A stretch of DNA of 42,617 bases from Octopus sinensis (lineage: Eukaryota). The notes under the pieces were generated by a model. It was not told the DNA's origin, did not search any database, and worked only from the letters and a program-made list of their open reading frames with translations. Position numbers and translations under genes: made by a program. Location: positions 1-42,617 of the forward strand of contig NW_021835070.1 in NCBI RefSeq assembly GCF_006345805.1. The letters run 5' to 3'. This document shows, piece after piece, positions 3,124 to 35,800 of this stretch. Each line of letters starts with the position of its first letter. The stretch's first letter is position 1.

Positions 3124-6100
3124 CTATGTTGGCTGTAGATAGGTATCTTGTATTTGTTGTCCCTTTAGTATTGTGGCTGCAACTGGATTGTCATTGGTAT
3201 ATTCTGCAAAATATCAAATATACAAACACAAATTACATTTCAATATAACAACTCCAATATATAAAGATACAAACATTGATCTTATATTACACTAAGCATA
3301 ACATTATATATTGTCCTACAGTAATAAAGGCAATTACATTTATATGTTATGTTTTGATAAAAGTTACCTGGTTCTGCAGGTATCTCATCATATGGTTTAG
3401 TCTTGCCATTACTCTTGCTAGCTTCTCTGTCCTTTTGGGATGTTAAGGTGTCACTGTTGTAAGACATGATGGAACTGGTGCGACGTCCTTGACTATGGAT
3501 TGAATCACATCTCTGTTGATTAGAAAAAAAAGCAGAAGAAACATTCACATTTCATTTCTAGAATGTTCGTGGTAAGACTAAGAAAGGAATACTTTTATGG
3601 AGTTGAAATGCTATAATTAAATTTTTTAACTAATAAAAATAAACTGGAATTCACAATTAAATAAAATGAAAATATTGTTCAATGAAATACTTATATGCAA
3701 ATTTTAAATGGGTATTACTAGTAAAAAGTAAAATTATGAAACATCTTTCATCTTTTACGGAAAAAATATAAGAAAGGGATATGACATGTAAAAAAAACAA
3801 GATGTATAGCATACGTTTTCAGGAATATTGTGAAGAAATGTGATGCAACAACTGGATTGTTTCAAAATATATTTACCTGAGGCACAGGTGGAAGTCTCCT
3901 TTGTGTTGTTGAGAATTTCCACTCATCTGGTGTCTGTTCCATCTCCAGAAAAAACTGACTTTTAGATTTTATTGTCTGAAGATTTCGGTTAAATATCTCT
4001 TCTGCATTTCTCGTTATTGCAACAGGATTGTTAGTCTGATACAGTAATTGTCTCATCTCAGTCTGAGAGAGAAAGTTGGGATTCTCTGCTGTTGTGGGTG
4101 AGTTATTTGTGTGATTAATACATCTGAAAACACACAGTGTTATGGACACTACAATAGCCACAGATAGTATTACAGCTGCTGCTACAATGATAATTACCCA
4201 AGTCATATTCAGGTCGTGACCAGACTGGAATGGCACAGCAGTCAACATTGGAGATGTATCATTACTAACAAACAGTGTTAGTATGATAGCAGTTGTTGCT
4301 GATTGAACTGGAGTACCACCGTCTTTCACTATAAACTGCAGCTCATATGTTCCTGCATCATTTTGGTAAACTGTGCGAGAGAAAGATAACACACCAGTGT
4401 GTGAGTTCACTGTAAACAGGTTTTATCATTGGATCTCAGTATTCCATATGTGAGGAAAGCATTGTTTCCAGTGTCTTTGTCAGATGCTCTCAGAATTGTG
4501 ATGTCCTTCTTACTGTGTGGATGGTAGTGGACATCGAGATTGTAAGGGTCATTATTAGGAAACGTAAAATACGGAGCATTATCATTTTTATCTAGAATCT
4601 CAATAACAATATTGCAGTGTCACTGAGAGAAGGTGTTCCATTATCTTTCACTAAAACCTTGAACTTATAGATGTCTTTCATTTCTCGATCTATTGGTTGT
4701 GATGTAGAAATAAATCCATATTTTGTCAGTTGGAAAGGAATGTTATCATTGTTGTTATCATTGATGATAGAATATGTAAGTTGGCCTCCATCTTCAAGAT
4801 CTGGGTCTGTAGCATTGATGAAGCCAATAGGGAAGTCAACTTTCTGGTTTTCATAGGTGAGGAATTGGAATGTTTCTTTGGTAAAATGTGGTTCTACATC
4901 ATTGACATCAGTTACTTTGACAGAGAAATATTTTTTACTTTCTAGTTGAGGTGACCCCATGTCATGACACACAATAGATGCTTTATAGTGGTCCCTTATC
5001 TCTCTGTCAAGGTGGCCCTTAACAATCATTTTATATTCTTTAGAATCTATTTTGGCAAGTTTAAATTTATCATGTTTTAAATCACAGATAACCTCACCAT
5101 TAGGTCCACTATCAGTGTCAGTGACCATAACATAAGCTATAAAACTATCTACTTCACTGTCTTCTGAAACTGCAGCTGAGCTCTCTGATAAAGGAGATAC
5201 AAAATCTATATTTATCAATGGAGCATTATTCTGGTTATTAACTATATGAATCTGAACTGCTGCAACAGATTTTTTTGGTGGTTTTCCTCCATCCCTTGCT
5301 TCAATAAATAACTTATAATACTGCATTTTACTAAAATGAAAGCTGTCATGTAAAAATAAATCTCCAGTTTTCTTATCTAATACAAAATATTTCTGGATAT
5401 TTCGAGATGTTTTATGGTTGAAATGATACGAAATCCTTCCATTGTCTCCAGAATCTTTATCTGTGGCCTTTAAAGTAAAAATTGGTAAATGTCTTTGATG
5501 TGAATTACTTACAGATGTGTTGTACAGGTCGTGTGAAAATACAGGTGTGTTATCATTGACATCAGTTACAGATATGTGTACCTTGAGTGTAGCTGTTTTG
5601 GGAGGATTCCCTCCATCTTTAGCTTCAAGGTTAACATGTATGAGTCTTTTACTTCCCTGTCTAACTTATCTTCAAGAATTATTTCAGGTGTGAAAATACC
5701 TTTGTGTTTTGTGACAGAGAGTGAAAATGGTTCTCTTTTACTTTTCTTGATCATATATGTAATTTGGGAATTTTTTATTGAAATATCTTCATCAATGGCA
5801 TTTAAAAGTGGGATTTTAGTACCTTTAAAATCTCTCTCTAAAAACTTTATTGTGATTTCATTCTGTGGAAATTCTGGAGAATGGTCATTGATGTCATCTA
5901 TTAATATTTTAATTTTTAGAATCTTCATAAATGTTTTTCCTTTTCTCACTGCTACTTTAACTATTCTGGAACATTCTTTGTTGTATGTACACAGGGACTC
6001 TGCATCCAGTGTCTGAGTTGTGTATAGTTTTCCTGAGTTGGTGACATTAAATAAGTGAGAACCACTCTCGACTGTCCTTTGTAGTTGTGTAAATGTAATG

Positions 6101-6270
6101 AGAGTGTGTTGTTGATGTGTGAGAGGGTGTGATAAGTTAGAGTCAACAGCAATGTCTCCTATATAGGTGTGAGGTCTGTCTTCTTCCTTGACATGGTATG
6201 TAATATCTATGGACAGTACAAGGGTGATCAGTAAATGTAGAAGACACAGTAGACCAATATATGCTGTCAT
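3124..6270 (-). CDS. Pcdh: Protocadherin gene 1 (6 EC + TM + cytoplasmic tail), three 1-bp deletions as assembled
   Basis: Coding exons 6270-3877, 3512-3368 and 3203-3124 with GT-AG sites in consistent phase. Cadherin motifs LDRE and DxNDN, EC1 Cys loop. Single-base losses relative to paralogs at about 5629, 4614 and 4421-4424. Confidence 0.9.
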
Positions 6271-6424
6271 GTCTGGAATTCTTCATCACATTTCAGCAGG
6301 AGAAATTGCTACAAAACATGAGAAATACATTTAAAGTTTATTTATAATTCAACAAATCTAATTATATTTACAATAATCACTGTGACACATCTATTTCTAT
6401 CTGGAAACGTGTTCCATTTGTCAA

Positions 6425-8015
6425 AATTGAACGTGGAGCAAAAAAAGGTACTTTTTACACAGTTTTTTTAAATATGTTTCCAAAAATATATTTTTCATTG
6501 CAAAATCCTTTATAAACAACTGTGTTAAAATCTGAAGTTCTTAAATATACATCTTCAGGCTCCACAGCCCACGTGAAATTTTGAATAATGAGCAAAAAAT
6601 CAATTTATAACACATTTGCATTCCTCATTTTATTTTTTATATTCATTGTTACAAATTGATTTTCTTTCGCGAAATTATTTAAAAACAAGAGTGTTAAAAT
6701 CTCAAGGTCTACAATTTATATCTTCAGGGTCCACCACACACTTGAAATTTCGAAATTATGTGAAAGAAATAGACTTTGTGACTTTGTTTCCTTTATTATT
6801 TTTAATACTAGGTCACTGAATATATGTGTTACATGAGGTCTAGATCACACACACATTAAAATAAAATTACATATAAACCAATTTTTGATTCTTGACACAT
6901 TTTGGTGATAAAAATATTTCCAATAAAAAATGTCAAATAAATCTTTTGTTGCATTTTTCTTAAACACATTACACTGTTTGAAATGATGGAACATTTTTTC
7001 TATTTCTCCCAGATTTAGTAATGCTTGATACTTTAGATAAAAGTTCAAGATTTTTAGTTTAACTGACTCAATTGTAACACAAGGGATGGATGCCTTTTGC
7101 CAAAGAAGTATTATCTTTTCTGCCTCAATCTCGAAAATTTGTTTAAATGAAGGATCTTTCTTAACTATATTCTTTTCTTTATCTTGTTCAAATAAAACAC
7201 ATTTTAGTATGTCCCACCTAGTTGGCAAAACTCACTTGCTAAGATCATATGGAGTACCAAATATTGGGCATTCAATATCATGGTGCGTTATTGGCTTACG
7301 AGTCATCACTAAATGTAAACAACACTAAATTTAACGTGATCGTTAATTTTAATACAATGGCCTAAAGTCAAGGTACAAAGCAGAAAACTTCACACGTACC
7401 ATGTACATCCACACACAATGACTGCTGCAGTGGCACTGGAGAGAAGTTCACACTCCCGTTCTCTATATAGTCAGTGCGAACCTCAAGATATTAATCAATT
7501 GTATTGAAACTTGGTATGCAACCTCTTAAGGATACTATATTTACTGTTTTGCATTTTGCTATGTAGAAATATATATACATTACGACTTATAATCGATGAA
7601 ATCCAAAATTTGACCAAAAATAGCGATTTTTAAATTTTTCAATTGTGTTGCGGAGCCTGAAAAGCATATTTAATCGCAATGTTCTTTATACACTTTTCTT
7701 TTTAACCTAATTCACAACAAAATATCTATTTCTTTATTACGCATAAGGGGCTAAACACAGAGGGGACAGACAAGGACAGACATAGGTATTAAGTCGATTA
7801 CATCAATCCCAGTGCATAACTGGTACTTAATTTATCGACCCCGAAAGGATGAAAGGCAAAGTCGACTTCGGCGGAATTTGAACTCACAACGTAACGACAG
7901 ACGAAATACGGCTACGCATTTCGCCCGGCATGCTAACGTTTCTGCCACCTCACTGCAACAAAATATCGATTCTTGGTTACCAATTTCGAAAGTTGCACTT
8001 TTCGCTCCACCCTAC
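6425..8015 (-). mobile_element. Probable decayed DNA transposon, superfamily not assigned
   Basis: ORF remnant 6845-7228 (PT.WD.L...LWQKASIP) resembles N-terminal regions I associate with invertebrate transposon-derived proteins. Imperfect inverted ends (gtggagcaaaaa at about 6432; ttttcgctccac at about 7999-8010) and internal repeats at about 6555 and 6725, inverted at about 7650. Confidence 0.4.
7728..7952 (-). mobile_element. tRNA-derived SINE, relatively intact copy nested in the transposon relic
   Basis: Same core as 994-1208 with CpGs retained: atcgaccccgaaaggatgaaaggcaaagtcgacttcggcggaatttgaactc. Confidence 0.75.
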
Positions 8016-8611
8016 TGAATAGTCTTCCGTGATCTAACAATACATAACGAGAGTTATCTCCCTCGAATAAACCTCACTCATTTATCTTAATTATTGTGTT
8101 GTTTATCTAGTCTCAATGTTTTACGTTGTCTCTCAGAAAATTCTGTTGTTGGATTAAACGTTAGCAATCATGTTTTAGGTTTAATGTTCATAATTTATCA
8201 ATAGATTAATGTATTTCTTCAAAAATATATCTATACTGAAATAATAAAACACTATATTAAAAATGAGTATCAAAGTGAGATATGACATGTCTGGAGCTCA
8301 ATTTAAATTGCTTGTCCCAACCCTCTGACCGATTACAGAAACTATTTGATAAAAATATCTACCGTCACAATCCTAACGATACAGTTACTTTTTCCTGTTC
8401 CGAGAACAATTTTGGAATGAATGTTTCTGCATTTCATTTTAATGTGGAAACAGGATGGTGGAGAGTAAAGAATCGAGGGAACTGTCTAATCCAATATGTA
8501 CATATGATGATAAAGATGAGGAGATAGAAAATATAAATTCTCAACCCAAATGTCACCATGTTTGAACAGTTATAAGGATTGCTACATGCTGGAATATAAC
8601 ATTTACTCTCT

Positions 8612-9160
8612 GTCATCATCATCGTCGTTTAACGTCTGCTTTCCATGCTAGCATGGGTTGGACGGTTTGACTGGGGTCTGGGAAGCCAGGAGACTGCACC
8701 AGGCTCCAGTCTGATCTGGCAGTGTTTCTACAGCTGGGTGCCCTTCCTAACGCCAACCACTCCAAGAGTGCAGTGGGTACTTTTTTACGAGTCACTGGCA
8801 CAGGGGTCACAGGGGGCTGACATTGACTGAGATTGGATGGTGCTTTTTACGTGACACCGGCATGGAAGCGAGTCAAGGTGACATATCATCTTTGTCGTTT
8901 AACGTTCGCTTTCCATGCTGGCATGGGTTGGACAGTTTGACTGAGGTCTGGAGAGCCAGAAGGCTGCACCAGGCTCCAATCTGATCTGGCAAAGTTTCTA
9001 CAACTGGATGCCCTTCCTAACGCCAACCACTCCGAGTGTAGTGGGTGATTTTACATGCCACTGGCATGAAAGCCAGTCAGGCAGTTCTGGCAATGACCAT
9101 GCTCAAAAGGTGTTTTTATGTGCTACCTGCACAGGAGCCAGTCTGGCGGCACTGGCAATG
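8612..9160 (-). mobile_element. Two tandem RTE-LINE 3'-end fragments
   Basis: gtcgtttaacgt...ctttccatgct.gcatgggttggac.gtttga at about 8625 and about 8895 matches the 3' end of the LINE at about 36362; (CAT)n tail. Confidence 0.7.
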
Positions 9161-11124: not shown

Positions 11125-11815
11125 TTTCTTGTATAATGTTGTCTTGTGTGATTCTGACATTAAAAGGTGTAATCCAGATTGAAGTAATTGCATTACAATG
11201 TCTACTGCAGTTGTGTTGTTAATGGTGGAAGTGATGGCTAGATCTCTCGATCCTCCACTGTCCCAGTCCCTGTATATATACAACATGGCAGACATTTTAG
11301 ATATTATCCTTACCCTGTCTTTCATTAGAAACACAAATAATATAAATGTTATAATGAATATGAAAAGATAATAAGAGAGAGAGAGAGAGAGAGAGAGACT
11401 TACCTGCATTGTTTAATCCTTCACTGTAGTTGTGTGTGATGGATGATGTGTATCCTGCTGTAGTGTTCCACTCCAACTACTGCTGCTGCTGCTGTAGTGG
11501 TATTATAGTGGTACTGCTGCTGTTGTAGTAGTGTTCCTGTGTTACTGCTGCTGCTGCTGCTGTTCCTGTGTAACTGCTGATATAATAGTGTGACAGTTGC
11601 TGTATGTAGTGGGAGGTGAGATGTTAGCCAGATGCTGGTGTGTGCTAGTTACAACTCTATGTCCTCCACACACACACACACACACACAATTGTGTGTATG
11701 ATGAACAAAGAAAAAAGCTATCAGCCTCACTTTCAATATTGAAAGAAATATAGAAAATCTCTCTCATCCAATAGGAAATTATTGCAATGTTGTCTGTGTC
11801 ACACAAACACATCAA
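11125..11815 (-). promoter_or_regulatory. Promoter / leader cassette copy B (gene 1)
   Basis: CCAAT at 11768-11772; donor after 11404; matching acceptor ttttgtag before 6308. Confidence 0.7.
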
Positions 11816-12457: not shown

Positions 12458-15400
12458 CTATGTTGGCTGTAGATAGGTATCTTGTATTTGTTGTCCCTTT
12501 AGTATTGTGGATGCAACTGGATTGTCATTGGTATATTCTGTAAAATATCAAATATACAAACACAAATTACATTTCAATATAACAACTCCAATATATAAAG
12601 GTAGAAACATTGATCTTGTATTACACTAAGCATAACATTATATATTGTCCTACAGTAATAAAGGCAATTACATTTATATGTTATGTTTTGATAAAAGTTA
12701 CCTGGTTCTGCAGGTATCTCATCATATGGTTTAGTCTTGCCATTACTCTTGCTAGCTTCTCTGTCCTTTTGGGATGTTAAGGTGTCACTGTTGTAAGACA
12801 TGATGGAACTGGTACGACGTCCTTGACTATGGATTGAATCACATCTCTGTGGATTAGAAAACAAAGCAGGGTGAAACAATATAAAATAAAAGTAGCAATT
12901 GCATCTATATTCTGGAATGTTCCTAGAATGAAAGAACAGATTAAAGCTTTGAATTCAACAAAAATATAATTGAAGATTTTCTTAGTAAATTATAATAAAC
13001 ATTGAGGAGAGAATTAACAAATATATTAGTGCAAAGAAATATTTATAATTGCTTCTCCAAAAAGTAAATTTATGAAATGCCTCACCCGGGGCACTGATAT
13101 TATAGGCGCAGGAGTGGCTGTGTGGTAAGTAGCTTGCTAACCAACCACACGGTTGCGGGTTCAGTCCCACTGCGTGGCATCTTGGGCAAGTGTCTTCTGC
13201 TATAGCCCCGGGCTGACCAATGCCTTGTGAGTGGATTTGGTAGACGGAAACTGAAAGAAGCCTGTCGTATATATGTATATATATGTATATGTGTGTGTGT
13301 TTGTGTGTCTGTGTTTGTCCCCCTAGCATTGCTTGACAACCGATGCTGGTGTGTTTAGGTCCCCGTCACTTAGCGGTTCGGCAAAAAGAGACCGATAGAA
13401 TAAGTACTAAAAGGTGGTGCTCCAGCATGGCCGCAGTCAAATGACTGAAACAAGTAAAAGAGTAAAGAGTAAGAGTATCAATAATCTTTTATAAAGAAGA
13501 TATAAGGAATATGATATGACATGTAAATGAAATAAAATATATAAAACATGTTTTCAGAAATATTGATCACAAATATCTAACAAGAAAATTATTTTAAAAT
13601 ATATTTACCTGAGGCACAGGTGGAAGTCTCCTCTGTGTTGTTGAGAATTTCCACTCATCTGGTGTCTGTTCCATCTCCAGAAAAAACTGACTTTTAGATT
13701 TTATTGTCTGAAGATTTCGGTTAAATATCTCTTCTGCATTTCTCGTTATTGCAACAGGATTGTTAGTCTGATACAGTAATTGTCTCATCTCAGTCTGAGA
13801 GAGAAAGTTGGGATTCTCTGCTGTTGTGGGTGAGTTATTTGTGTGATTAATACATCTGAAAACACACAGTGTTATGGACACTACAATAGCCACAGATAGT
13901 ATTACAGCTGCTGCTACAATGATAATTACCCAAGTCATATTCAGGTCGTGACCAGACTGGAATGGCACAGCAGTCAACATTGGAGATGTATCATTACTAA
14001 CAACAGTGTTAGTATGATAGCAGTTGTTGCTGATTGAACTGGAGTACCACCGTCTTTCACTATAAACTGCAGCTCATATGTTCCTGCATCATTTTGGTAA
14101 ACTGTGCGAGAGAAAGATAACACACCAGTGTGTGAGTTCACTGTAAACAGGTTTTTATCATTGGATCTCAGTATTCCATATGTGAGGAAAGCATTGTTTC
14201 CAGTGTCTTTGTCAGATGCTCTCAGAATTGTGATGTCCTTCTTACTGTGTGGATGGTAGTGGACATCGAGATTGTAAGGGTCATTATTAGGAAACGTAAA
14301 ATACGGAGCATTATCATTTTTATCTAGAATCTCAATAACAATATTGGCAGTGTCATTGAGAGAAGGTGTTCCATTATCTTTCACTAAAACCTTGAACTTA
14401 TAGATGTCTTTCATTTCTCGATCTATTGGTTGTGATGTAGAAATGAATCCATATTTTGTCAGTTGGAAAGGAATGTTATCATTGTTGTTATCATTGATGA
14501 TAGAATATGTAAGTTGGCCTCCATCTCCAAGATCAGGGTCAGTAGCATTGATGAAGCCAATAGGGAAGTCAACTTTCTGGTTTTCATAGGTGAGGAATTG
14601 GAATGCCTCTTTGGTAAAATGTGGTTCTACATCATTGACATCAGTTACTTTGACAGAGAAATATTTTTTACTTTCTAGTTGAGGTGACCCCATGTCATGA
14701 CACACAATAGATACTTTATAGTGGTCCCTTATTTCTCTGTCAAGATGACCCTTAACAATCATTTTATATTCTTTAGAATCTATTTTGGCAAGTTTAAACT
14801 TATCATGTTTTAAATCACAGATAACCTCACCATTAGGTCCATTATCGGTGTCAGTGACCATAACATAAGCTATAAAACTACCAATTTTACTTGCTTCTGA
14901 AACTGCTGCTGAGCTCTCTGATAAAGGAGATACAAAATCTATATTTATCAATGGAGCATTATTCTGGTTATTAATAATGTGAATCTGGACTTTGGTTACA
15001 GAACTTAAATGTGGATTTCCTTCATCCTGTGCTTCAATAAATAATTTATATGATTGCTTTTTACTAAATTGAAAGCTGTCATGTAAAAACAGATCTCCAG
15101 TCTTCTTATTTAATACAAAATATTTCTGGATATTTCGAGAGGTTTTGTGGTTGAAATGGTAAGAAATCTTTCCATTGTCTCCAGAATCTTTATCTGTGGC
15201 CTTTAAAGTAAAAATTGGCAAATGTCTTTGATGTGAATTACTTATAGAGATGTTGTAAAGTTTCTGTGAAAATACAGGTACATTATCATTGACATCTGTC
15301 ACAGATATGTGTACCTTGAGTATAGCTGTTTTGGGAGGGTTTCCTCCATCTTTAGCTTCCAGAGTCAACATATATGAATCTTTGAGTTCCCTGTCTAATT

Positions 15401-16007
15401 TGTCTCCTAAAACTAGAGCTGGTATGAAAACACCATCATATCGCTTTTCAACTGAGAGAGAAAATGGTTCTCTTTTACTTTTCTTAATCATATATGTTAT
15501 TTGTGAATTCTGTATTGAAATATCTTGATCAATGGCATTTAAAAGTGAGATTTTAGTACCTTGAAGGTGACTCTCAAGAAATTCAATTTGAACTTCATTC
15601 TTTGGGAATTCTGGTGAGTGGTCATTGATGTCTTCTATTAATATTTTTATCCTTAGAATCTTCATAAAAGTTTCTTCTTTCCTCACTGCTACTTTGACAA
15701 TTTTGGAACATTCCTTGTTGTATGTACACAGAGACTCAGCATCCAGTGTTTGAGTAGTGTATAGTTTTCCTGAGTTGGTGACATTAAATAAGTGAGAACC
15801 ACTCTCGACTGTCCTTTGTAGTTGTGTAAATGTAATGAGAGTGTGTTGTTGATGTGTGAGAGGGTGTGATAAGTTGGAGTCAACAGCAATGTCTCCTATA
15901 TAGGTGTGAGGTCTGCCTTCTTCCTTGACATAGTATGTAATATCTATGGACAGTACAAGGGTGATCAGTAAATGTAGAAGACACAGTAGACCAATATATG
16001 CTGTCAT
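12458..16007 (-). CDS. Pcdh: Protocadherin gene 2, one 1-bp deletion just before the TM segment as assembled
   Basis: Exons 16007-13609, 12846-12702 and 12537-12458. The 677-aa ORF shifts frame at 14002-14003 (caaca versus caaaca in the paralogs). Confidence 0.92.
13105..13476 (+). mobile_element. Near full-length tRNA-derived SINE in the intron after the large exon of gene 2
   Basis: A-box-like gtggctgtgtgg, B-box-like ggttcagtcc, core-like ttgggcaagtgtctt, internal (TA)/(TG) tract and taaaagag-type tail; absent from the paralogous introns. Confidence 0.8.
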
Positions 16008-18167: not shown

Positions 18168-18211
<44 letters not shown>

Positions 18212-18414: not shown

Positions 18415-18927
18415 TATGTGATTCTGAGATTAAAAGATGTAATCCAGTTCAAAGTAATTGTATTACTGCAGTTATTGTTGTTAATGGTGGCAGTGATGGC
18501 TAGATCTCTCGATCCTCCACTGTCCCAGTCCCTGTATATATACAACATGGCAGACATTTTAGATATTATCCTTACCCTGTCTTTCATTAGAAACACAAAT
18601 AATATAAATGTTATAATGAATATGAAAAGATAATAAAGAGAAGAAAGGGAGAGAGAGAGACTTACCTGCATTGTTTAATCCTTCACTGTAGTTGTGTGTG
18701 ATGGATGATGTGTATCCTGCTGTAGTGTTCCACTCCAACTGCTGCTACTGCTGCTGTAGTGGTATTATAGTGGTACTGCTGCTGTTGTAGTAGTGTTCCT
18801 GTGTTACTGCTGCTGCTGCTGCTGTTCCTGTGTAACTGCTGATATAATAGTGTGACAGTTGCTGTATGTAGTGGGAGGTGAGATGTTAGCCAGATGCTGG
18901 TGTGTGCTAGTTACAACTCTATGTCCT

Positions 18928-18960
<33 letters not shown>

Positions 18961-19727: not shown

Positions 19728-22700
19728 CTATGTTGGCTGTAGATAGGTATCTTGTATTTGTTGTCCCTTTAGTATTGTGGCTGCCACTGGATTGTCATTG
19801 GTATATTCTGCAAAATATCAAATATACAAACACAAATTACATTTCAATATAACAACTCCAATATATAAAGATAGAAACATTGATCTTGTATTACACTAAG
19901 CATAACATTATATATTGTCCTACAGTAATAAAGGCAATTACATTTATATGTTATGTTTTGATAAAAGTTACCTGGTTCTGCAGGTATCTCATCATATGGT
20001 TTAGTCTTGCCATTACTCTTGCTAGCTTCTCTGTCCTTTTGGGATGTTAAGGTGTCACTGTTGTAAGACATAATGGAACTGGTGCGACGTTCTTGACTAT
20101 GGATTGAGTCACATCTCTGTTGATTAGAAAACAGAGTGAAACATAATGTTAAAAAGAGAAAAACATCTACATTTGCATTCTAGTATATTCCCTGTGTTAT
20201 AGAAAAAAGGAACATTTTATTTTTCAAAATAAAAAATATTATAATTAAATATTTTCTTATTTAATTAAAATGCATTAGAGTCAAAAATAAATCATAACAA
20301 ATGTATAGGTTAGATATTAATGCACAAATTTTAAATATATCTATTTGGTTAAGTATAAAATGAAGAAAAAATCATTGAATCTTTCACAAAATAAATGCAG
20401 TATATTTTTGTAATAAATCACTTAAATGTACAAAATACACGAAATAGAATATAATATGTAACAAATACAAGGTTCGGCTGAACACTTCGTAGGCTCAACA
20501 AGATCCTCACATAGAATGTGACCAAACAAGGTTTATTTTGCAACATAATCACAGAAAAAGGGATCTTGCATTAATACAGAGTTAGATCACTCCTAATAAA
20601 ACAGTCTTTATATTAAGAGTATTGTATTTCTATAATAGGCATTGTGACCGCTTTGCTATCACTAAATAAAGAATAATTAATTCAGAATGTCAAAATAAAC
20701 TATGACATTTGATTATTAAAAACAATACATGTACATTAGAATCTAAAGTTGATATTTTATAGAAATATTTGAACATACATCACTAATGGAAAGAATACTC
20801 TTGTATTTAAAATCATAAGGATATCAAAAACAAGATAATATTTACCTGAGGCACAGGTGGAAGTCTCCTTTGTGTTGTTGAGAATTTCCACTCATCTGGT
20901 GTCTGTTCCATCTCCAGAAAAAACTGACTTTTAGATTTTATTGTCTGAAGATTTCGGTTAAATATCTCTTCTGCATTTCTCGTTATTGCAACAGGATTGT
21001 TAGTCTGATACAGTAATTGTCTCATCTCAGTCTGAGAGAGAAAGTTGGGATTCTCTGCTGTTGTGGGTGAGTTATTCGTGTGATTAATACATCTGAAAAC
21101 ACACAGTGTTATGGACACTACAATAGCCACAGATAGTATTACAGCTGCTGCTACAATGATAATTACCCAAGTCATATTCAGGTCGTGACCAGACTGGAAT
21201 GGCACAGCAGTCAACATTGGAGATGTATCATTACTAACAAACAGTGTTAGTATGATAGCAGTTGTTGCTGATTGAACTGGAGTACCACCGTCTTTCACTA
21301 TAAACTGCAGCTCATATGTTCCTGCATCATTTTGGTAAACTGTGCGAGAGAAAGATAACACACCAGTGTGTGAGTTCACTGTAAACAGGTTTTTATCATT
21401 GGATCTCAGTATTCCATATGTGAGGAAAGCATTGTTTCCAGTGTCTTTGTCAGATGCTCTCAGAATTGTGATGTCCTTCTTACTGTGTGGATGGTAGTGG
21501 ACATCGAGATTGTAAGGGTCATTATTAGGAAACGTAAAATACGGAGCATTATCATTTTTATCTAGAATCTCAATAACAATATTGGCAGTGTCATTGAGAG
21601 AAGGTGTTCCATTATCTTTCACTAAAACGTTGAACTTATAGATATCTTTCATTTCTCGATCTATTGATTGTGATGTAGAAATGAATCCATATTTGGTCAG
21701 TTGGAAAGGAATGTTATCATTGTTGTTATCATTGATGATAGAATATGTAAGTTGGCCTCCATCTCCAAGATCAGGGTCTGTAGCATTGATGAAGCCAATA
21801 GGGAAGTCAACTTTCTGGTTTTCGTAGGTGAGGAATTGGAATGTCTCTTTGGTAAAATGTGGTTCTACATCATTGACATCAGTTACTTTGACAGAGAAAT
21901 ATTTTTTACTTTCTAGTTGAGGTGACCCCATGTCATGACACACAATAGATACTTTATAGTGGTCCCTTATTTCTCTGTCAAGATGGCCCTTAACAATCAT
22001 TTTATATTCTTTAGAATCTATTTTGGCAAGTTTAAATTTATCATGTTTTAAATCACAGATAACCTCACCATTAGGTCCACTATCAGTGTCAGTGACCATA
22101 ACATAAGCTATAAAACTACCAATTTTACTTGCTTCAGAAACTGCTGCTGAACTCTCTGTTAAAGGAGATACAAAATCTATATTTATCAATGGAGCAGTAT
22201 TCTGGTTATTAATAATGTGAATCTGGACTTTGGTTAAAGAACTTAAGGGTGGATTTCCTCCATCTCGTGCTTCAATAAATAATTTATAAGACTGCATTTT
22301 AGTAAACTGAAAATTGTCATGTAAAAACAAATCTCCAGTGTTCTTATCTAAAACAAAATATTTCTGGATATTTCGAGATGTTTTATGGTTGAAATGATAA
22401 GAAATCTTTCCATTGTCTCCAGAATCTTGATCTGAAGCTTTTAAAGTAAGAATTGGTAAATGTCTTTGATGTGAATTACTTATAGAGATGTTGTAGATTT
22501 CCTGTGGAAATACAGGTGTATTATCATTAACATCTGTTACAGATATGTGTACTTTGAGTGAAGCTGTTTTTGGTGGGTTCCCTCCATCTTTAGCTTCTAG
22601 TATCAACATATAATAGTCATTGAGTTCCCTGTCTAATCTATCTTCTAGAATTAGCGCAGGTATGAAAATACCCTTCTGTTTTGTGACAGAGAGAGAAAAT

Positions 22701-23242
22701 GGTTCGCTTTTACTTTTTTTAATTATATATGTAATTTGAGAATTTTTGATTGAAATATCTTTATCAATTGCATTCAGAAGAGGGATTTTGCTTCCTTTAC
22801 TCTCTCTTTCTGAAAAATGAATCTTAACTTCATTTTGTGGAAATTCTGGAGAATGGTCATTGATGTCTTCTATTAATATTTTTATTTTGAGAATTTTCAT
22901 AAATGCTTCTTCTTTCCTCACTGCTACTTTAACTATTCTGGAACATTCCCTGTTGTATGTACACAGAGACTCAGCATCCAGTGTTTGAGTAGTGTATAGT
23001 TTTCCTGAGTTGGTGACATTAAATAAGTGAGAACCACTCTCGACTGTCCTTTGTAGTTGTGTAAATGTAATGAGAGTGTGTTGTTGATGTGTGAGAGGGT
23101 GTGATAAGTTAGAGTCAACAGCAATGTCTCCTATATAGGTGTGAAGTCTGTCTTCTTCATTGACATGGTATATAATATCTATGGACAGTACAAGGGTGAT
23201 CAGTAAATGTAGAAGACACAGTAGACCAATATATGCTGTCAT
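19728..23242 (-). CDS. Pcdh: Protocadherin gene 3, intact, 873 aa predicted
   Basis: Exons 23242-20846 (2397 nt), 20116-19972 (145 nt) and 19807-19728 (80 nt). Signal peptide, six EC repeats, TM WVIIIVAAAVILSVAIVVSITLCVF, C-terminus ...DTYLQPT*. Confidence 0.95.
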
Positions 23243-24940: not shown

Positions 24941-25590
24941 GTGATTTTGATATTAAAAGGTGTAATCCAGATTGAAGTAATTGTATTACAATGACTACTG
25001 CAGCTGTTGTTAATGGTGGAAGTGATGGCTAGATCTCTCGATCCTCCACTGTCCCAGTCCCTGTATATATACAACATGGCAGACATTTTAGATATTATCC
25101 TTACCCTGTCTTTCACTAGAAACACAAATAATATAAATGTTATAATGAATATGAAAAGATAATAAAGAGAAAGAGAGAGAGAGAGAGACTTACCTGCATT
25201 GTTTAATCCTTCACTGTAGTTGTGTGTGATGGATGATGTGTATCCTGCTGTAGTGTTCCACTCCAACTGCTGCTGCTGCTGTAGTGGTATTATAGTGGTA
25301 CTGCTGCTGTTGTAGTAGTGTTCCTGTGTTACTGCTGCTGCTGTTCCTGTGTAACTGCTGATATAATAGTGTGACAGTTGCTGTATGTAGTGGGAGGTGA
25401 GATGTTAGCCAGATGCTGGTGTGTGCTAGTTACAACCCTATGTCCTCCACACACACACACACAATTGTGTGTATGATGAACAAAGAAAAAAGCTATCAGC
25501 CTCACTTTCAATATTGAAAGAAATATAGAAAATCTCTCTCATCCAATAGGAAATTACTGCAATGTTGTCTGTGTCACACAAACACATCAA
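24930..25590 (-). promoter_or_regulatory. Promoter / leader cassette copy D (gene 3)
   Basis: CCAAT at 25543-25547; donor after 25194; acceptor ttttatag before 23280. Confidence 0.7.
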
Positions 25591-26489: not shown

Positions 26490-29425
26490 CTATGTTGGCT
26501 GTAGATAGGTATCTTGTATTTGTTGTCCCTTTAGTATTGTGGCTGCCACTGGATTGTCATTGGTATATTCTGCAAAATATCAAATATACAAACACAAATT
26601 ACATTCCAATATAACAACTCCAATATATAAAGATAGAAACATTGATCTTGTATTACACTAAGCATAACATTATATATTGTCCTACAGTAATAAAGGCAAT
26701 TACATTTATATGTTATGTTTTGATAAAAGTTACCTGGTCCTGCAGGTATCTCATCATATGGCTTAGTCTTGCCATTACTCTTGCTAGCTTCTCTGTCCTT
26801 TTGGGATGTTAAGGTGTCACTGTTGTAAGACATGATGGAACTGGTACGACGTCCTTGACTATGGATTGAATCGCATCTCTGTTGATTAGAAAACAAAGCA
26901 GGGTGAAGCATAATGTTAAAAAGAAGAAACATTAACATTTCTATTCTAGAATGCTCCTGATGAAAGACAAGAAAGGCATGCTTTTATAATGTGTAGAAAT
27001 ATTATCGAATTTTTTCAACTATATTTACCTGAGGCACAGGTGGAAGTCTCCTTTGTGTTGTTGAGAATTTCCATTCATCTGGTGTCTGTTCCATCTCCAG
27101 AAAAAACTGACTTTTAGATTTTATTGTCTGAAGATTTCGGTTAAATATCTCTTCTGCATTTCTCGTTATTGCAACAGGATTGTTAGTCTGATACAGCAAT
27201 TGTCTCATCTCAGTCTGAGAGAGAAAGTTGGGATTCTCTGCTGTTGTGGGTGAGTTATTTGTGTGATTAATACATCTGAAAACACACAGTGTTATGGACA
27301 CTACAATAGCCACAGATAGTATTACAGCTGCTGCTACAATGATAATTACCCAAGTCATATTCAGGTCGTGACCAGACTGGAATGGCACAGCAGTCAACAT
27401 TGGAGATGTATCATTACTAACAAACAGTGTTAGTATGATAGCAGTTGTTGCTGATTGAACTGGAGTACCACCGTCTTTCACTATAAACTGCAGCTCATAT
27501 GTTCCTGCATCGTTTTGGTAAACTGTGCGAGAGAAAGATAACACACCAGTGTGTGAGTTCACTGTAAACAGGTTTTTATCATTGGATCTCAGTATTCCAT
27601 ATGTGAGGAAAGCATTGTTTCCAGTGTCTTTGTCAGATGCTCTCAGAATTGTGATGTCCTTCTTACTGTGTGGATGGTAGTGGACATCGAGATTGTAAGG
27701 GTCATTATTAGGAAACGTAAAATACGGAGCATTATCATTTTTATCTAGAATCTCAATAACAATATTGGCAGTGTCATTGAGAGAAGGTGTTCCATTATCT
27801 TTCACTAAAACCTTGAACTTATAGATGTCTTTCATTTCTCGATCTATTGATTGTGATGTAGAAATAAATCCATATTTTGTCAGTTGGAAAGGAATGTTAT
27901 CATTGTTGTTATCATTGATGATAGAATATGTAAGTTGGCCTCCATCTCCAAGATCAGGGTCTGTAGCATTGATGAAGCCAATAGGGAAGTCAACTTTCTG
28001 GTTTTCATAGGTGAGGAATTGGAATGTCTCTTTGGTAAAATGTGGTTCTACATCATTGACATCAGTTACTTTGACAGAGAAATATTTTTTACTTTCTAGT
28101 TGAGGTGACCCCATGTCATGACACACAATAGATACTTTATAGTGATCCCTTATTTCTCTGTCAAGATGGCCCTTAACAATCATTTTATATTCTTTAGAAT
28201 CTATTTTGGCAAGTTTAAATTTATCATGTTTTAAATCACAGATAACCTCACCATTAGGTCCACTATCATTGTCAGTGACCATAACATAAGCTATAAAACT
28301 ACCAATTTTACTTGCTTCTGAAACTGCTGCTGAGCTCTCTGATAAAGGAGATACAAAATCTATATTTATCAATGGAACATTATTCTGATTATTGACTACG
28401 TGAATCTGAACTGCTGCAACAGATTTTTTGGGTGGCTTTCCTCCATCTCTTGCTTCAATAAATAACTTATAAAACTGCATTTTACTAAACTGAAAATTAT
28501 CATGTAAAAATAAATCTCCAGTTTTCTTACTTAATACAAAATATTTCTGAATATTTCGAGATGTTTTATGGTTGAAATAATATGAAACCTTTCCATTGAG
28601 TCCAGAATCTTGATCTGTGGCTTTTAAAGAAAGAATTGGTAAATGTCTTTGATGTGAATTATTGATAGAAATGTTGTAAAGTTTCTGAGGAAATACAGGT
28701 ATGTTATCATTGACATCTGTCACAGATATATGTACCTTGAGTGTAGCTGTTTTGGGTGGGTTCCCTCCATCTTTGGCTTCCAGGGTCAACATATATGAAT
28801 CTTTTATTTCCCTGTCTAATTTGTCGTCTAGAATTAGTTCAGGTATAAAAATACCATCACGTTTTGTGACAGAGAGAGAAAAAGGTTCTTTTTTATTTTT
28901 CTCAATTATATATATAATTTGAGAATTTTTTATTGAAATATCTTCATCAATGGCATTCAGAAGAGAGATTCTAGTTCCTTTACTATCGCTTTCAGAAAAT
29001 CCAATTTCAACTTCATTTTGTGGAAATTCTGGTGAATGGTCATTGATGTCTTCTATTAATATTTTTATTTTGAGAATTTTCATAAATGCTTCTTCTTTCC
29101 TCACTGCTACTTTAACTATTCTGGAACATTCCCTGTTGTATGTACACAGAGACTCAGCATCCAGTGTTTGAGTAGTGTATAGTTTTCCTGAGTTGGTGAC
29201 ATTAAATAAGTGAGAACCACTCTCGACTGTCCTTTGTAGTTGTGTAAATGTAATGAGAGTGTGTTGTTGATGTGTGAGAGGGTGTGATAAGTTGGAGTCA
29301 ACAGCAATGTCTCCTATATAGGTGTGAGGTCTGTCTTCTTCCTTGACATGGTATGTAATATCTATGGACAGTACAAGGGTGATCAGTAAATGTAGAAGAC
29401 ACAGTAGACCAATATATGCTGTCAT
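26490..29425 (-). CDS. Pcdh: Protocadherin gene 4, intact, 873 aa predicted
   Basis: Exons 29425-27029, 26878-26734 and 26569-26490; same domain layout as gene 3. Confidence 0.95.
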
Positions 29426-31120: not shown

Positions 31121-31783
31121 GTGACTCTGACATTAAAAGGTGTAATCCAGATTAAAGCAATTGTATTACAATGACTACTGCAAATTTTGTTGTTGCCAAT
31201 GGTGGAAGTGATGGCTAGATCTCTCGATCCTCCACTGTCCCAGTCCCTGTATATATACAACATGGCAGACATTTTAGATATTATCCTTACCCTGTCTTTC
31301 ATTAGAAACACAAATAATATAAATGTTATAATGAATATGAAAAGATAATAAAGAGAGAGAGAGAGAGAGAGAGAGACTTACCTGCATTGTTTAATCCTTC
31401 ACTGTAGTTGTGTGTGATGGATGATGTGTATCCTGCTGTAGTGTTCCACTCCAACTACTGCTGCTGCTGCTGTAGTGGTATTATAGTGGTACTGCTGCTG
31501 TTGTAGTAGTGTTCCTGTGTTACTGCTGCTGCTGCTGTTCCTGTGTAACTGCTGATATAATAGTGTGACAGTTGCTGTATGTAGTGGGAGGTGAGATGTT
31601 AGCCAGATGCTGGTGTGTGCTAGTTACAACTCTATGTCCTCCACACACACACACAATTGTGTGTATGATGAACAAAGAAAAAAGCTATCAGCCTCACTTT
31701 CAATATTGAAAGAAATATAGAAAATCTCTCTCATCCAATAGGAAATTACTGCAATGTTGTCTGTGTCACACAAACATATCAAA
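31110..31783 (-). promoter_or_regulatory. Promoter / leader cassette copy E (gene 4)
   Basis: CCAAT at 31735-31739; donor after 31382; acceptor before 29463. Confidence 0.7.
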
Positions 31784-32816
31784 TATGAGAAGTTGTGTTA
31801 AAATAAACAAGACTGATAATTTCCACAGAACATTATATATTTAGTTTTAATAATCAAACCATTTCATCTTTACATTCCTTTTAATTATTTTTGAAATAGA
31901 AATATCTTTTTATATTTAATGTTATAATTGGTAACTACAAAACTACAATCAGTCATAATATATATTTTTTTTAAACAGTTCTGTATATTTTACTTGTTAT
32001 CTATAAAGAAATGAATGTGACAAACCCATAGCTTTTGACATACAAAGTATAGAAGAATAAAGAGAAATATGTTAGAACATTGTGATTTTGAGGAAATGTA
32101 TTTAATATTTAACCATTATCACCTCAATATCTCACCTATGTAAAGCAAAAATCCTTTAGCAATATTTCTTATTCAAAATAGAATCATGGCTTATTAGTCA
32201 TATTAATGTAAAGGTGAGGAATAAAATTAATTCTTACTTTTATTAAAATATTAATGTTTCCCTCTCAAAACTAACTTACTAAATGTTACAATGTAGTATA
32301 ATGTAAAGCTATCTCAAATATTTTTGGTGATATTAGAAGAATCTATAGAATCGTATGGGCAAATTATATCATGAAAGGAACATTAAATAATGTGTAATTG
32401 TATTTTGCTGGTTAGCTCCAGGAGGTTTTTCTGTTATACAAATGAAAATTATAAATCTAAAAGGGAAAATTAACAATCAGAAGCTTAATTAATATAAGTG
32501 GAACTATAATAATTGTTTGTTTATGTAACAACATCTGACAATTCCTGACCAGGCTTTTTTATTTTTCATACTTTGTAGAGTAAAATGCAGTAACATTTAA
32601 TGTTATATGAAGCCATAACAAACGAGTGGTGTCAACTGTTTTAAATAAGCCAATGATGGTTATACAGGACAATATTTGTACTATTAGTGTTAATTAGGGC
32701 TCAATATCAATGACAATGAAAGCTTTATGAGTGGTAAATATCATATTAATGCTTTAAATCAATGTAAAATATTGGGTGTGTGAGAGAATCATTTAACAAT
32801 AGTCATGGAACATCTA

Positions 32817-35800
32817 CTATGTTGGCTGTAGATAGGTATCTTGTATTTGTTGTCCCTTTAGTATTGTGGCTGCCACTGGATTGTCATTGGTATATTCTGC
32901 AAAATATCAAATATACAAACACAAATTACATTTCAATATAACAACTCCAATGTATAAAGATAGAAACATAGATCTTATATTACACTAAGCATAACATTAT
33001 ATATTGTCCTACAGTAATAAAGGCAATTACATTTATATGTTATGTTTTGATAAAAGTTACCTGGTTCTGCAGGTATCTCATCATATGGTTTAGTCTTGCC
33101 ATTACTCTTGCTAGCTTCTCTGTCCTTTTGGGATGTTAAGGTGTCACTGTTGTAAGACATGATGGAACTGGTACGACGTCCTTGACTATGGATTGAATCA
33201 CATCTCTGGTGATTAGAAAACAGAGTGAAACATAATGTTAAATCAAAGAAACATTCGCATTTATATTCTAGAATGTTTCCAGTAAGACTCGAGGAAGGAA
33301 TGCTGTTAAAATGTGCAGAAATAATGTAATTTTAAAGATCTACTAAGTTAATAAAAAGAACTTGGAGAAGTGATAAACAAAACGGAAAACTCATTTAATG
33401 AAGTATGTGAAAATTTTAGATCTATTATATTTACATACTAAGCAAATTAAAATATTTTGGAGTAAACAAAACAAAGATACTACTTTAATGAAATATTTGG
33501 AAATTTTAAATTTAAGACATCTGCAAAATGTAAAACTATCAAAAAGGGCACTGAGAAAATATAAAGAACATAACATGTAAATAAAACTAGATATTTAAAA
33601 TATGTCTTCATGAATGTTATACAAAAATGCTATCAAACAATAGAATTGTTTAAAATAATATTTACCTGAGGCACAGGTGGAAGTCTCCTTTGTGTTGTTG
33701 AGAATTTCCACTCATCTGGTGTCTGTTCCATCTCCAGAAAAAACTGACTTTTAGATTTTATTGTCTGAAGATTTCGGTTAAATATCTCTTCTGCATTTCT
33801 CGTTATTGCAACAGGATTGTTAGTCTGATACAGTAATTGTCTCATCTCAGTCTGAGAGAGAAAGTTGGGATTCTCTGCTGTTGTGGGTGAGTTATTTGTG
33901 TGATTAATACATCTGAAAACACACAGTGTTATGGACACTACAATAGCCACAGATAGTATTACAGCTGCTGCTACAATGATAATTACCCAAGTCATATTCA
34001 GGTCGTGACCAGACTGGAATGGCACAGCAGTCAACATTGGAGATGTATCATTACTAACAAACAGTGTTAGTATGATAGCAGTTGTTGCTGATTGAACTGG
34101 AGTACCACCGTCTTTCACTATAAACTGCAGCTCATATGTTCCTGCATCATTTTGGTAAACTGTGCGAGAGAAAGAAAACACACCAGTGTGTGAGTTCACT
34201 GTAAACAGGTTTTTATCATTGGATCTCAGTATTCCATATGTGAGGAAAGCATTGTTTCCAGTGTCTTTGTCAGATGCTCTCAGAATTGTGATGTCCTTCT
34301 TACTGTGTGGATGGTAGTGGACATCGAGATTGTAAGGGTCATTATTAGGAAACGTAAAATACGGAGCATTATCATTTTTATCTAGAATCTCAATAACAAT
34401 ATTGGCAGTGTCATTGAGAGAAGGTGTTCCATTATCTTTCACTAAAACCTTGAACTTATAGATGTCTTTCATTTCTCGATCTATTGGTTGTGATGTAGAA
34501 ATAAATCCATATTTTGTCAGTTGGAAAGGAATGTTATCATTGTTGTTATCATTGATGATAGAATATGTAAGTTGGCCTCCATCTCCAAGATCAGGGTCTG
34601 TAGCATTGATGAAGCCAATAGGGAAGTCAACTTTCTGGTTTTCATAGGTGAGGAATTGGAATGTCTCTTTGGTAAAATGTGGTTCTACATCATTGACATC
34701 AGTTACTTTGACAGAGAAATATTTTTTACTTTCTAGTTGAGGTGACCCCATGTCATGACACACAATAGATACTTTATAGTGGTCCCTTATTTCTCTGTCA
34801 AGATGGCCCTTAATAATTATCTTATATTCTTTAGAATCTATTTTGGCAAGTTTAAATTTATCATGTTTTAAATCACAGATAACCTCACCATTAGGTCCAC
34901 TATCATTGTCAGTGACCATAACATAAGCTATAAAACTATCTACTTCACTGTCTTCTGAAACTGCAGTGGAACTCTCTGTTAAAGGAGACACAAAATCTAT
35001 ATTTATCAACGGAACATTGTTTTGGTTATTAATTACATAAATGTGAATTCTGGCTACCGACGTTAGAGGTGGATTCCCACCATCTCTTGCTTCTATAAAT
35101 AAAGACTGCATCTTACTAAAGTAAAAATTATCATGTAAAAATAAATCTCCAGTTTTCTTATCCAATACAAAATATTTCTGGATATTTTGAGATGTTTTAT
35201 GGTTGAAATGGTAAGAAATCTTTCCATTGTCTCCAGAATCTTGATCTGTGGCTTTTAAAGTAAGAATTGGTAAATGTCTTTGATGTGAATTATTTATAGA
35301 GATATTATAGAGTTTCTGTGAAAATACAGGTGTGTTATCATTAACATCTGTCACAGATATGCGTACCTTGAGTGTACCTGTTCTGGGAGGGTTCCCACCA
35401 TCTTTAGCCTCTAAGGTCAATATATACAAATCTTTTACTTCCCTGTCTAATTTGTCTTCTAAAGTCAGTTCAGGTGTAAAAACACCATCATTATCTTTTG
35501 CCATATACAAAGAAAATGGTTCTCTTTTATGATATTTTATGTTATATGAAATTTGGGAATTCATGATGGTAATATCTCTGTCTATAGCATATGGAATTTT
35601 TTTCTGATTTCCTTTCAGACTATCTTCTGCAAACTTGATACCTATTTCATCATCCGTAAATTCTGGAGAATAGTCATTGATGTCTTCTATTATTATTTTC
35701 ACCTTCAAAATCTTCATGAAAGTTTTTCCTTTCCTCACTGCTACTTTAACTATTCTGGAACATTCCTTGTTGTATGTACACAGAGACTCAGCATCCAGTG

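Follow-up and report, generated by a model that had tools for sequence, protein, structure and literature searches.

Whether the expanded protocadherins of cephalopods give neurons identities, like the clustered protocadherins of vertebrates, is the question on which this locus of Octopus sinensis bears. A 2019 paper states, in its available text, that nothing is known of the adhesion specificity of cephalopod protocadherins (PMC6339937), and the literature searched, with some subscription papers outside it, returned no binding, structural or interface work on any of them. The window, which is the whole stretch of 42,617 nucleotides analysed (contig NW_021835070.1), carries five protocadherin genes, all on the minus strand (Table 1). 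From these five genes alone, the original prediction held that the FG loop of EC1 and the AB loop of EC4 carry reciprocally swapped charges, and that the two patches co-evolve as an electrostatic lock and key defining two specificity classes.

Table 1. Exons and charge motifs of the five window genes. Residue numbers follow gene 3, with mature residue 1 at 23182 and the cleavage site placed by eye.
Feature	Position	Strand	Remark
Gene 1 exon 1, class K (GKT/DSEVD)	3877..6270	-	signal peptide, EC1-EC6, TM, tail start; frameshifts near 5626, 4615, 4425
Gene 1 EC1 FG tip, residues 91-93, GKT	5932..5940	-	translation
Gene 1 EC4 AB loop, residues 351-355, DSEVD	5147..5161	-	translation
Gene 1 cytoplasmic exons 2 + 3	3127..3515	-	ends approximate
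Gene 2 exon 1, class E (EET/ASKIG)	13609..16007	-	frameshift near 14005, EC6 end
Gene 2 EC1 FG tip, EET	15669..15677	-	translation
Gene 2 EC4 AB loop, ASKIG	14880..14894	-	translation
Gene 3 exon 1, class E (EEA/ASKIG)	20846..23242	-	intact; numbering reference
Gene 3 EC1 FG tip, EEA	22904..22912	-	translation
Gene 3 EC4 AB loop, ASKIG	22118..22132	-	translation
Gene 4 exon 1, class E (EEA/ASKIG)	27029..29425	-	intact
Gene 4 EC1 FG tip, EEA	29087..29095	-	translation
Gene 4 EC4 AB loop, ASKIG	28301..28315	-	translation
Gene 5 exon 1, class K (GKT/DSEVD)	33666..36062	-	intact; allele of L029 on C14
Gene 5 EC1 FG tip, GKT	35721..35729	-	translation
Gene 5 EC4 AB loop, DSEVD	34938..34952	-	translation
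Exon 2 + 3 pairs behind genes 2-5	12461-12852, 19731-20119, 26493-26881, 32820-33208		one pair per gene

The proteins are protocadherins of the 6-EC type, with Pfam Cadherin_2 followed by five Cadherin stretches (genes 3 and 5), a single hydrophobic (TM) segment visible in the translations, and EC1-4 structures of protocadherins, PCDH18 first, as the top fold matches. Like a cephalopod tandem array, the locus consists of complete genes with their own exons 2 and 3 (five of five); 40 close paralogs lie on contig C14 (59.99-60.73 Mb), and the best protein matches are named proteins of O. sinensis, O. vulgaris and Argonauta hians. The genes fall outside the vertebrate alpha, beta and gamma clusters, with about 30% identity to vertebrate chains and no constant exon of the alpha/gamma style common to the five window genes, and labels such as 'beta-15-like' in databases reflect similarity only. 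Cephalopod and vertebrate clusters have been called convergent (PMC4978886). A search among 50% representatives matched long multi-cadherin proteins throughout and was left unused, and the sequencing-run data are assembled contigs covering the stretch, their RNA label being a guess. On this contig the frame is shifted three times in gene 1 and once in gene 2, and the gene 1 deletion at 5626 is not present in the near-duplicate contig C11250; frames are broken in 12 of 31 young copies.

The translations bear out the predicted motifs. RKGKT is read on the minus strand at 5932-5946 and 35721-35735, with DSEVD in EC4 of the same two genes, and genes 2-4 have VRKEE(T/A)F with VSEASKIGSF. The ends of EC3 group the genes as described, with KPPKKSVAAVQ in genes 1 and 4, SS-TKVQ in genes 2 and 3, and gene 5 alone, and the EC1 tract common to genes 3 and 4 is identical over CDS nt 133-392, motif included. 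The pairing extends from the five window genes to all 30 young paralogs, comprising 26 C14 genes and window genes 1-4 (gene 5, an allele of L029 with 5 differences, was dropped): Lys92 occurs with DSEVD in 17 and a non-basic residue 92 with ASKIG in 13. Mismatched combinations (GKT with ASKIG, or EE with DSEVD), whose frequent occurrence would have spoken against the original prediction, number 0 of 30, and 0 of 11 among Argonauta counterparts. The linkage of the motifs is complete at 778 nt and far beyond chance (r2 = 1.0; Fisher p 8.4e-9, or 1.6e-4 after correction for 19,471 far pairs), and it holds in the C14 genes alone (n = 26; 16/0/0/10, p 1.9e-7) and in genes with an intact first-exon frame (n = 19; 9/0/0/10). 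Linkage across paralogs shows that the two patches co-evolve. The claim of a swap needs refining, as the charges match in 30 of 30 genes without reversing at the same position: K92 goes with D351/E353/D355, and E92 with K353. Within the EC1 motif the tight linkage belongs to residue 92, whereas G/E91 reaches an r2 of only 0.75; G91 stands on an ASKIG-type EC4 in two genes (L007, GQT; L106, GTT), both of which have lost Lys92 and have broken frames. The class differences are partly A/G at the codon level (AAA/GAA at 92 and 353, GAA/GGA at 91, GAT/GGT at 355).

We propose that the octopus proteins would dimerize as vertebrate protocadherins do, antiparallel with EC1:EC4 / EC2:EC3 contacts, so that two identical molecules on facing cells would pair head to tail and bring the two patches into contact. 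A longer FG hairpin would pass the start of EC4 strand B and reach the AB loop, where K92 could bridge D351/E353 in class K, and E92 could bridge K353 in class E. Gene conversion of one patch would produce a like-charge homodimer, either selected out or rescued by a neutral residue 92. Pairing of a class K with a class E protein would leave both EC1:EC4 ends like-charged (K92 against K353; E91/E92 against D351/E353/D355), and the switch might therefore act as one binary digit atop EC2-EC3 variation, with both states retained. From sequence, we strongly infer that the patches are in physical contact, and the charge pairing would likely help each protein bind its own kind. A charge contact between molecules of a trans-dimer under epistatic selection, antiparallel dimer and longer hairpin included, appears very probable. 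For the whole chain, including the split into two mutually disfavoured recognition classes, we estimate a probability of roughly 0.6; its weakest step is that the two states would be specificity classes and not equal self-binding solutions, which we consider likely. We put at about even odds an independent octopod origin of a modular, combinatorial code for self-recognition, in which a two-state charge key in EC1:EC4 is combined with a variable EC2-EC3 module; such a code would involve balancing selection across genera for at least ~29 million years, with conversion freely recombining the key with EC2-EC3.

Genes cluster by genus, yet both states occur in Octopus and Argonauta, the 11 Argonauta counterparts comprising six with K92/D351/E353 and five with E92/K353 (p 0.002). 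The split of the genera is dated by a fossil minimum to at least ~29 Ma (PMC12682272). Family-wide, K92 goes with D351/E353 and E92 with K353, and acidic 351 is found in 69 of 80 basic-92 loci versus 1 of 57 acidic-92 loci (163 loci in total); in class K of the young array, E353 and D355 come on top of the family-wide D351, and a separate subarray pairs R92 with D351 (3 of 3 versus 0 of 20). Acidic 351 is missing in 11 of the 80 basic-92 genes, and one 8-gene subarray is an exception to the rule, combining K92 with G351/K353. Two states are not required everywhere, since K92/D351 is close to fixation in a 35-gene subarray. Among 14 independent pairs, a large share of whose signal comes from tandem subarrays, the trait shifts the same way in 12.1 and the opposite way in 0, and column controls (n = 203) place 351, 353, 353 and 355 as the top four; the dispersed genes alone (n = 54) give three well-supported independent pairs, which is not significant. 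In a mean-field coupling analysis 92-353 and 92-351 rank second and third of 94,395 pairs, and 9th and 14th without the young subfamily, in an alignment that is shallow (effective 73-151 sequences) and where the high ranks of 63-330 and 41-240 resemble phylogenetic noise. The charge scan of an older 12-gene subarray gives r = -0.85 for 92-351, with a ranking spoiled by undefined values. The young array offered a candidate second code, in EC2:EC3 (172 with 314, r2 0.64), which was rejected because 22.6% of permutation runs reached that value, and the 176-313 and 141-270 couplings are leads only.

The strongest competitor accepts the contact and limits it to securing self-binding: the two states would be equal solutions on either side of a fitness valley, both persisting since switching takes two changes, with diversity not favoured and no sorting of cells. 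It predicts perfect linkage equally and fits a subarray nearly fixed in one state, but the states are near even in two genera (17:13 and 6:5), with EC4-EC6 homogenised to 1-2% diversity and genes clustering by genus, conditions in which drift should tend to lose one of them. EC2-EC3 already differ at 14-20% of sites, and one vertebrate study describes EC1:EC4 as giving affinity and little specificity (PMC5001838); against this, self-binding patches give like charges in the heterodimer, as between gamma-A and gamma-B (PMC5106212), and the young class K carries E353 and D355 beyond the D351 of the wider family. We consider self-binding alone unlikely, and favour two recognition classes.

The geometry of a trans contact can be followed residue by residue. 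In the predicted monomer, strands F and G of EC1 span 81-90 and 93-105 with 91-92 at the hairpin tip, and 350-356 form a loop ahead of EC4 strand B, in agreement with the loop names FG and AB. Residue 351 directly follows glutamate 350, which in the cadherin motif is a conserved residue of the calcium linker between EC4 and EC5. In alignment to PCDH10, octopus 97, 95 and 85 correspond to L88, L86 and E79, and 360 and 357 to L362 and V359, while octopus has three more residues in the FG hairpin, with the gap at 91-93. Octopus 99:392 and 93 were mapped on PCDH1 96:398 and 90 via PCDH10 and published equivalences, that of octopus 392 with PCDH1 398 being provisional. Complementary covariation occurs at 92:351/353, in extension of the register of EC1:EC4 crystal contacts, and, with only 2-4 independent pairs, largely from one clade, at two pairs that reverse charge: 85:362, where 21 of the 54 dispersed genes have D/E with K and where 362 is the counterpart of PCDH18 R356, and 99:392 (K:E 34, E:K/R 19 and K:R 1 of the same 54). 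The last two are homologous to published bridges, and 97:357 also lies in the published trans register. The core contacts L88:L362 and L86:V359 are published, as is a proposal that K356 of PCDH9/11 pairs with an acidic residue at 90 (PMC7082078), and by alignment both octopus loops appear to continue this register. A contact at 351-355 would extrapolate two to six residues past the known ones; the EC4 AB loop is absent from the shared EC4 contact motifs of one figure legend, and the A-B hairpin is named in the accompanying text (PMC5115871). A complex prediction for two gene 5 EC1-4 copies, run without alignment, scored 0.01 (mark 0.32), returned no contacts and is given no weight either way.

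Since covariation carries no geometry, the patches might instead interact as cis neighbours, in a lattice or through a common third partner, and position 351, adjoining the calcium-linker glutamate, might have other roles. We judge this improbable. With EC1 and EC4 at the two ends of a rigid rod, a parallel cis contact would be hard to build; of the 30 strongest inter-domain couplings, 23 (six of them from this loop pair) join EC1-EC4 or EC2-EC3, versus four joining EC1-EC3 or EC2-EC4; and 85:362, 97:357 and 99:392 match the trans register.

The antiparallel trans-dimer is also consistent with the distribution of diversity, which is high in EC2 (0.20) and EC3 (0.14) and low in EC1 before the tip (0.025-0.045) and after the EC4 island (0.008-0.021), as expected of protocadherins that dimerize through EC1-4; vertebrates are reported to show a similar distribution (PMC4978886). 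Diversity at the EC4 island is itself a peak (0.20), falling to 0.015 just downstream. Inheritance of the pairing from two ancestral backbones, its spread by long-tract co-conversion, or its creation by assembly chimeras is largely refuted, even with a 260-nt EC1 tract common to genes 3 and 4, many broken frames, and a window that possibly represents another haplotype of C14 genes, which would leave some rows not independent. The C14 genes carry the linkage alone, and separately annotated proteins of Argonauta hians, O. vulgaris and O. bimaculoides show the same pattern. Across the 30 genes, nt 334 is completely linked (r2 = 1.00) to six sites at nt 1112-1124, whereas all other informative sites except nt 332 stay at r2 <= 0.28 with class, the flanks upstream of the EC1 island and downstream of the EC4 island at <= 0.10, and a synonymous site 5 nt off the EC4 island at 0.00; linkage elsewhere is at background past 60 nt (mean r2 ~0.04). 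In a block-permutation null some far pair reached r2 = 1.0 in 1.15% of 2000 runs, these cases probably being rare sites. Ancestry common to a class does not explain the pairing, because in each of the seven regions genes of opposite class are as far apart as genes of one class. Only 13 of the 30 genes share their class with their closest EC2-3 neighbour; of the 157 biallelic sites lying between the motifs, 100 combine with class in all four ways; and on a tree without the motif columns class changes 9 times versus 10.0 with shuffled labels. A Hudson-Kaplan count of 88 is inflated by repeated mutation and was given no weight. Nearest EC2-3 neighbours of opposite class (such as L012/L008, L015/L004, L026/L006) offer natural near-isogenic pairs. 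The downstream spacer places gene 2 (class E) where L028 (class K) sits, and L028 is also its nearest neighbour in EC2-3, suggesting that alleles have switched class; with no match in the upstream flank, this case was not counted. Linkage at the RNA level, by pairing of the islands or A-to-I editing between states, is highly improbable: editing is extensive in coleoids and several class differences are A/G, but the states are genomic, both islands are purine-rich and by eye not complementary, and other lineages reach the same charge logic with other codons or residues (K or R at 92).

In sum, the pairing is selection evidence, with residues named, that EC1:EC4 self-complementarity matters in octopods, and a clean case of epistasis, in which sites ~780 bases apart are held together despite strong conversion in the gene family. 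A modular code, if true, would be the first residue-level evidence that protocadherins of cephalopods discriminate self from non-self via a vertebrate-type antiparallel dimer, and a recognition code could be read straight from long-range linkage among paralogs.

Charge-based EC1:EC4 specificity is already known in vertebrates, where gamma-B has E41:K338/R340 and gamma-A and alpha have R/K41 (PMC5106212). As predicted for octopus, the charges there are opposite in the homodimer and like in the heterodimer, with classes at subfamily level. Unlike the octopus FG tip and AB loop, the vertebrate positions lie in strands C and B, and the classes are old clades, whereas in octopus they are 3- and 13-nt islands without a class backbone, on mixed paralogs of an array of separate origin. 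Delta-protocadherins, which include delta-2 members among the closest solved folds, also reverse charge between subtypes, with variable contacts E96:K398 in PCDH1 and a Glu80-equivalent with R356/R351 in delta-2 (PMC7082078); K398E abolishes PCDH1 binding (PMC6769022). Octopus 85:362 corresponds to the PCDH18 bridge and 92-93 adjoins position 90, although the delta genes are about ten and dispersed, their hairpin (in PCDH10) is the shorter one, and in octopus the site that covaries with the hairpin tip is further out, within the AB loop. Published cephalopod arrays are likewise young expansions of whole-gene tandem duplicates on one chromosome, with conversion suggested, and the available text of these papers covers numbers, arrangement and expression, not binding surfaces (PMC9068888, PMC9795677, PMC6339937). 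Covarying EC1-EC4 and EC2-EC3 pairs have been read as evidence of the antiparallel dimer in clustered protocadherins too (PMC5001838; bioRxiv 10.1101/493106), from deep vertebrate alignments; the octopus signal, in contrast, is a complete long-range linkage among the paralogs of one genome, visible by eye, with recombination between the motifs as a built-in control.

Residues 91-93 at the tip of the EC1 FG hairpin (numbering follows mature gene 3) read GKT in genes 1 and 5 of the window and EE(T/A) in genes 2-4, and are accompanied in the EC4 AB loop, residues 351-355, by DSEVD and ASKIG, respectively; all motifs lie where the original prediction had placed them. We extended the comparison to 30 young paralogs of this recent tandem subfamily, 26 from contig C14, where the main protocadherin array is located, and genes 1-4 of the window (gene 5 is an allele of locus L029 and was excluded; the pseudogene-like L106 was added only later, outside the count). 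Lys92 occurs with DSEVD (class K) in 17/30 and a non-basic residue 92 with ASKIG (class E) in 13/30, whereas free mixing at these frequencies would give, by arithmetic, about 15 mismatches among the 30. The mismatched combinations on which the original prediction turned are absent from all 30, and every gene with an intact frame is matched (19/19). EC1 nucleotide 334 and six EC4 class sites are in complete linkage across 778-790 nt, against a background mean r2 of 0.04 beyond 60 nt, and sites between or outside the two islands never exceed an r2 of 0.28 with class. Fisher's test gives p = 8.4e-9 (1.6e-4 corrected for 19,471 far pairs; 1.9e-7 for the C14 genes by themselves), and a perfect far pair arose in 1.15% of block-permutation runs. 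The pattern is both real and strong.

Contig C11541, which makes up the window, belongs to a genome of 2.72 Gb. Its five genes, all on the minus strand, each comprise a long first exon, encoding a signal peptide, six cadherin repeats and a transmembrane segment, and two small private cytoplasmic exons; among named proteins, those nearest to them come from Octopus sinensis, O. vulgaris and Argonauta hians. From C14 we took 160 protocadherin loci of a larger family, chosen among the matches listed, at most 150 for each of two genome searches. Because the far end of the window is 99.9% identical to C14 beside L029, the window probably represents a second haplotype of this array segment. Against C14:60500001-60570000 (L161-L167), identity is 99.9% beside gene 5, while each of the remaining window genes shows 53-96 base differences from the C14 gene nearest to it, spacers are 93-98% alike and gene order differs, which suggests strong divergence between haplotypes. 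Gene 2 and L028, counterparts by position (downstream spacer) and nearest in EC2-3, are of opposite class at both islands. Contig C11250, a 99.96% copy of the first 26 kb of the window, was left out of the counts. It lacks one of the three frameshifts of gene 1 (gene 2 has one), so some frameshifts may be sequencing errors, and the broken first-exon frames in 12/31 young copies mix errors with true pseudogenes. Each window gene is followed downstream by a spacer with one occurrence of a 31-bp tandem unit, which belongs to the duplicated unit.

Positions in the window of the first exons of genes 1 and 2 and of the spacer repeats
Feature	Position	Strand
Gene 1	3877-6270	minus
Gene 2	13609-16007	minus
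31-bp tandem unit	1895-1969	
31-bp tandem unit	11478-11559	
31-bp tandem unit	18748-18818	
31-bp tandem unit	25270-25344	
31-bp tandem unit	31456-31538	

Set against EC2-EC3 relationships, as originally proposed, the pairing holds and class is independent of EC2-3 neighbours. The classes are without a backbone of their own, since among the 30 paralogs between-class distance equals within-class distance in every domain, the nearest neighbour in EC2-3 has the same class in only 13/30, 100 of the 157 biallelic sites lying between the islands form all four combinations with class, and class changes 9 times on the tree (10.0 with shuffled labels), with no clustering. Diversity is 0.20 in the EC4 island and 0.015 in adjoining sequence. 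Where a G91-type EC1 is joined to an ASKIG-type EC4, in two genes, residue 92 is Gln or Thr, and one Argonauta gene has GET together with SNKIN; the lysine at 92 is lost where the blocks have recombined.

The original prediction took the two patches for a co-evolving electrostatic lock and key defining two specificity classes. In the mechanism we propose, each protein would bind its own kind head-to-tail, and at either end of the dimer the lengthened EC1 tip would contact the AB loop of EC4, Lys92 against Asp351 and Glu353 in class K, and Glu92 against Lys353 in class E. Conversion would mix EC2-EC3 and homogenise the remaining sequence, but a tract altering one patch only would leave a self-repelling protein, to be purged. 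Cross-class dimers would face like charges at both ends, and the charge switch would add one binary digit to isoform identity. That the patches form a selected contact is very probable; for the full class code, contact together with discrimination between classes, we estimate a probability of roughly 0.6. The main rival, by which both states merely secure self-affinity, is rather unlikely, although one vertebrate study argues that EC1:EC4 gives mainly affinity (PMC5001838). A binary identity digit would explain why both states stand near even frequency in two genera. In the five window genes, most class differences at codons 91, 92, 353, 354 and 355 exchange A and G, which means that a transcript could in principle be shifted towards the opposite state by A-to-I editing.

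In the predicted EC1-4 monomer (mean pLDDT 87.6), residues 91-92 form the tip of the F-G hairpin of EC1 and 350-356 the loop preceding EC4 strand B; the folds that match this model best are EC1-4 structures of vertebrate protocadherins. Vertebrate dimers bring the C-F-G face of EC1 against the A-B-E-D face of EC4; in PCDH10 numbering, L88:L362 lies at the centre of this interface and L86:V359 on its flank (PMC7082078), and by profile alignment these pairs correspond to octopus 97:360 and 95:357. The octopus hairpin tip falls opposite a three-residue gap in PCDH10 (exactly 91-93), gamma-B4 and gamma-A9, and opposite a one-residue gap in Xenopus pcdh8.1. Judging from alignment and covariation, an outward extension of this antiparallel ladder would let residue 92 meet 351-355. 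Within one gene the charges are opposite, as expected for homophilic binding; if binding were obligate across classes, like charges would be expected. In addition, two pairs reverse charge in one clade, 85:362, which corresponds by homology to the delta-2 Glu:Arg bridge (octopus 362 is aligned with PCDH18 R356), and 99:392; both would support the same EC1:EC4 interface. This clade (C14 1.5-9.4 Mb) comprises L118, L120, L123, L125, L126, L137, L138, L140, L143-L146, L148-L152, L154 and L160, and Glu353 is present in 5/5 of its K92 genes. Weaker EC2:EC3 covariation, of 172/176 with 313/314 and of 141 with 270, did not reach significance in the young array alone, and may form a second layer of the code.

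Among Argonauta counterparts having both regions (n = 11), six are GKT/DSELD and five E92 with K353 (p = 0.002). When the motif columns are left out of the tree, genes separate by genus, Octopus from Argonauta, and both classes occur in each group; fossils place the split at a minimum of about 29 Ma (PMC12682272). As far as seen, proteins from O. vulgaris and O. bimaculoides agree (P0043, P0020, P0021, P0023, P0040, P0041, P0271). Across 163 loci (gene 5 and the partial L093 left out), acidic 351 accompanies basic 92 in 69/80, neutral 92 in 4/26 and acidic 92 in 1/57. The rule recurs as R92/D351 in a separate subarray, L071-L096 (C14 59.10-59.35 Mb), with EC1 tip types KK-[DE]SF, NKGTSV and NKGRSI and D351 only with the R92 type. 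Against it, K92 occurs with G351/K353 in an eight-gene subarray (L121, L122, L127, L129, L130, L133, L135, L139; C14 58.53-58.62 Mb), whose EC1 tip, RRKT, is very basic, and against two states everywhere, one 35-gene subarray is nearly fixed. Under phylogenetic control (133 rows), 12.1 of 14 independent pairs change together and 0 in the opposite sense (median p 5e-4), with 351, 353 and 355 leading 203 column controls; the 54 dispersed genes taken alone hold only 3 supported independent pairs. Coupling analysis of 256 sequences ranks 92-353 second and 92-351 third of 94,395 pairs; without the young subfamily (213 sequences) they rank 9th and 14th, with some noisy pairs among these ranks.

Identification of the octopus genes with vertebrate clustered protocadherins is ruled out, as they lack the shared constant exons of the latter. 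Papers on cephalopod protocadherins cover tandem expansion, possible conversion and expression (PMC9068888, PMC9795677, PMC6339937), and no study of their binding surfaces was found in the largely open-access literature searched. The principle is already known, since EC1:EC4 charge complementarity has been described as a specificity device for gamma-B versus gamma-A and alpha isoforms (PMC5106212) and also for delta-protocadherins (PMC7082078, PMC6769022, PMC5115871). The octopus pairing would be a variant form of this recognition device.
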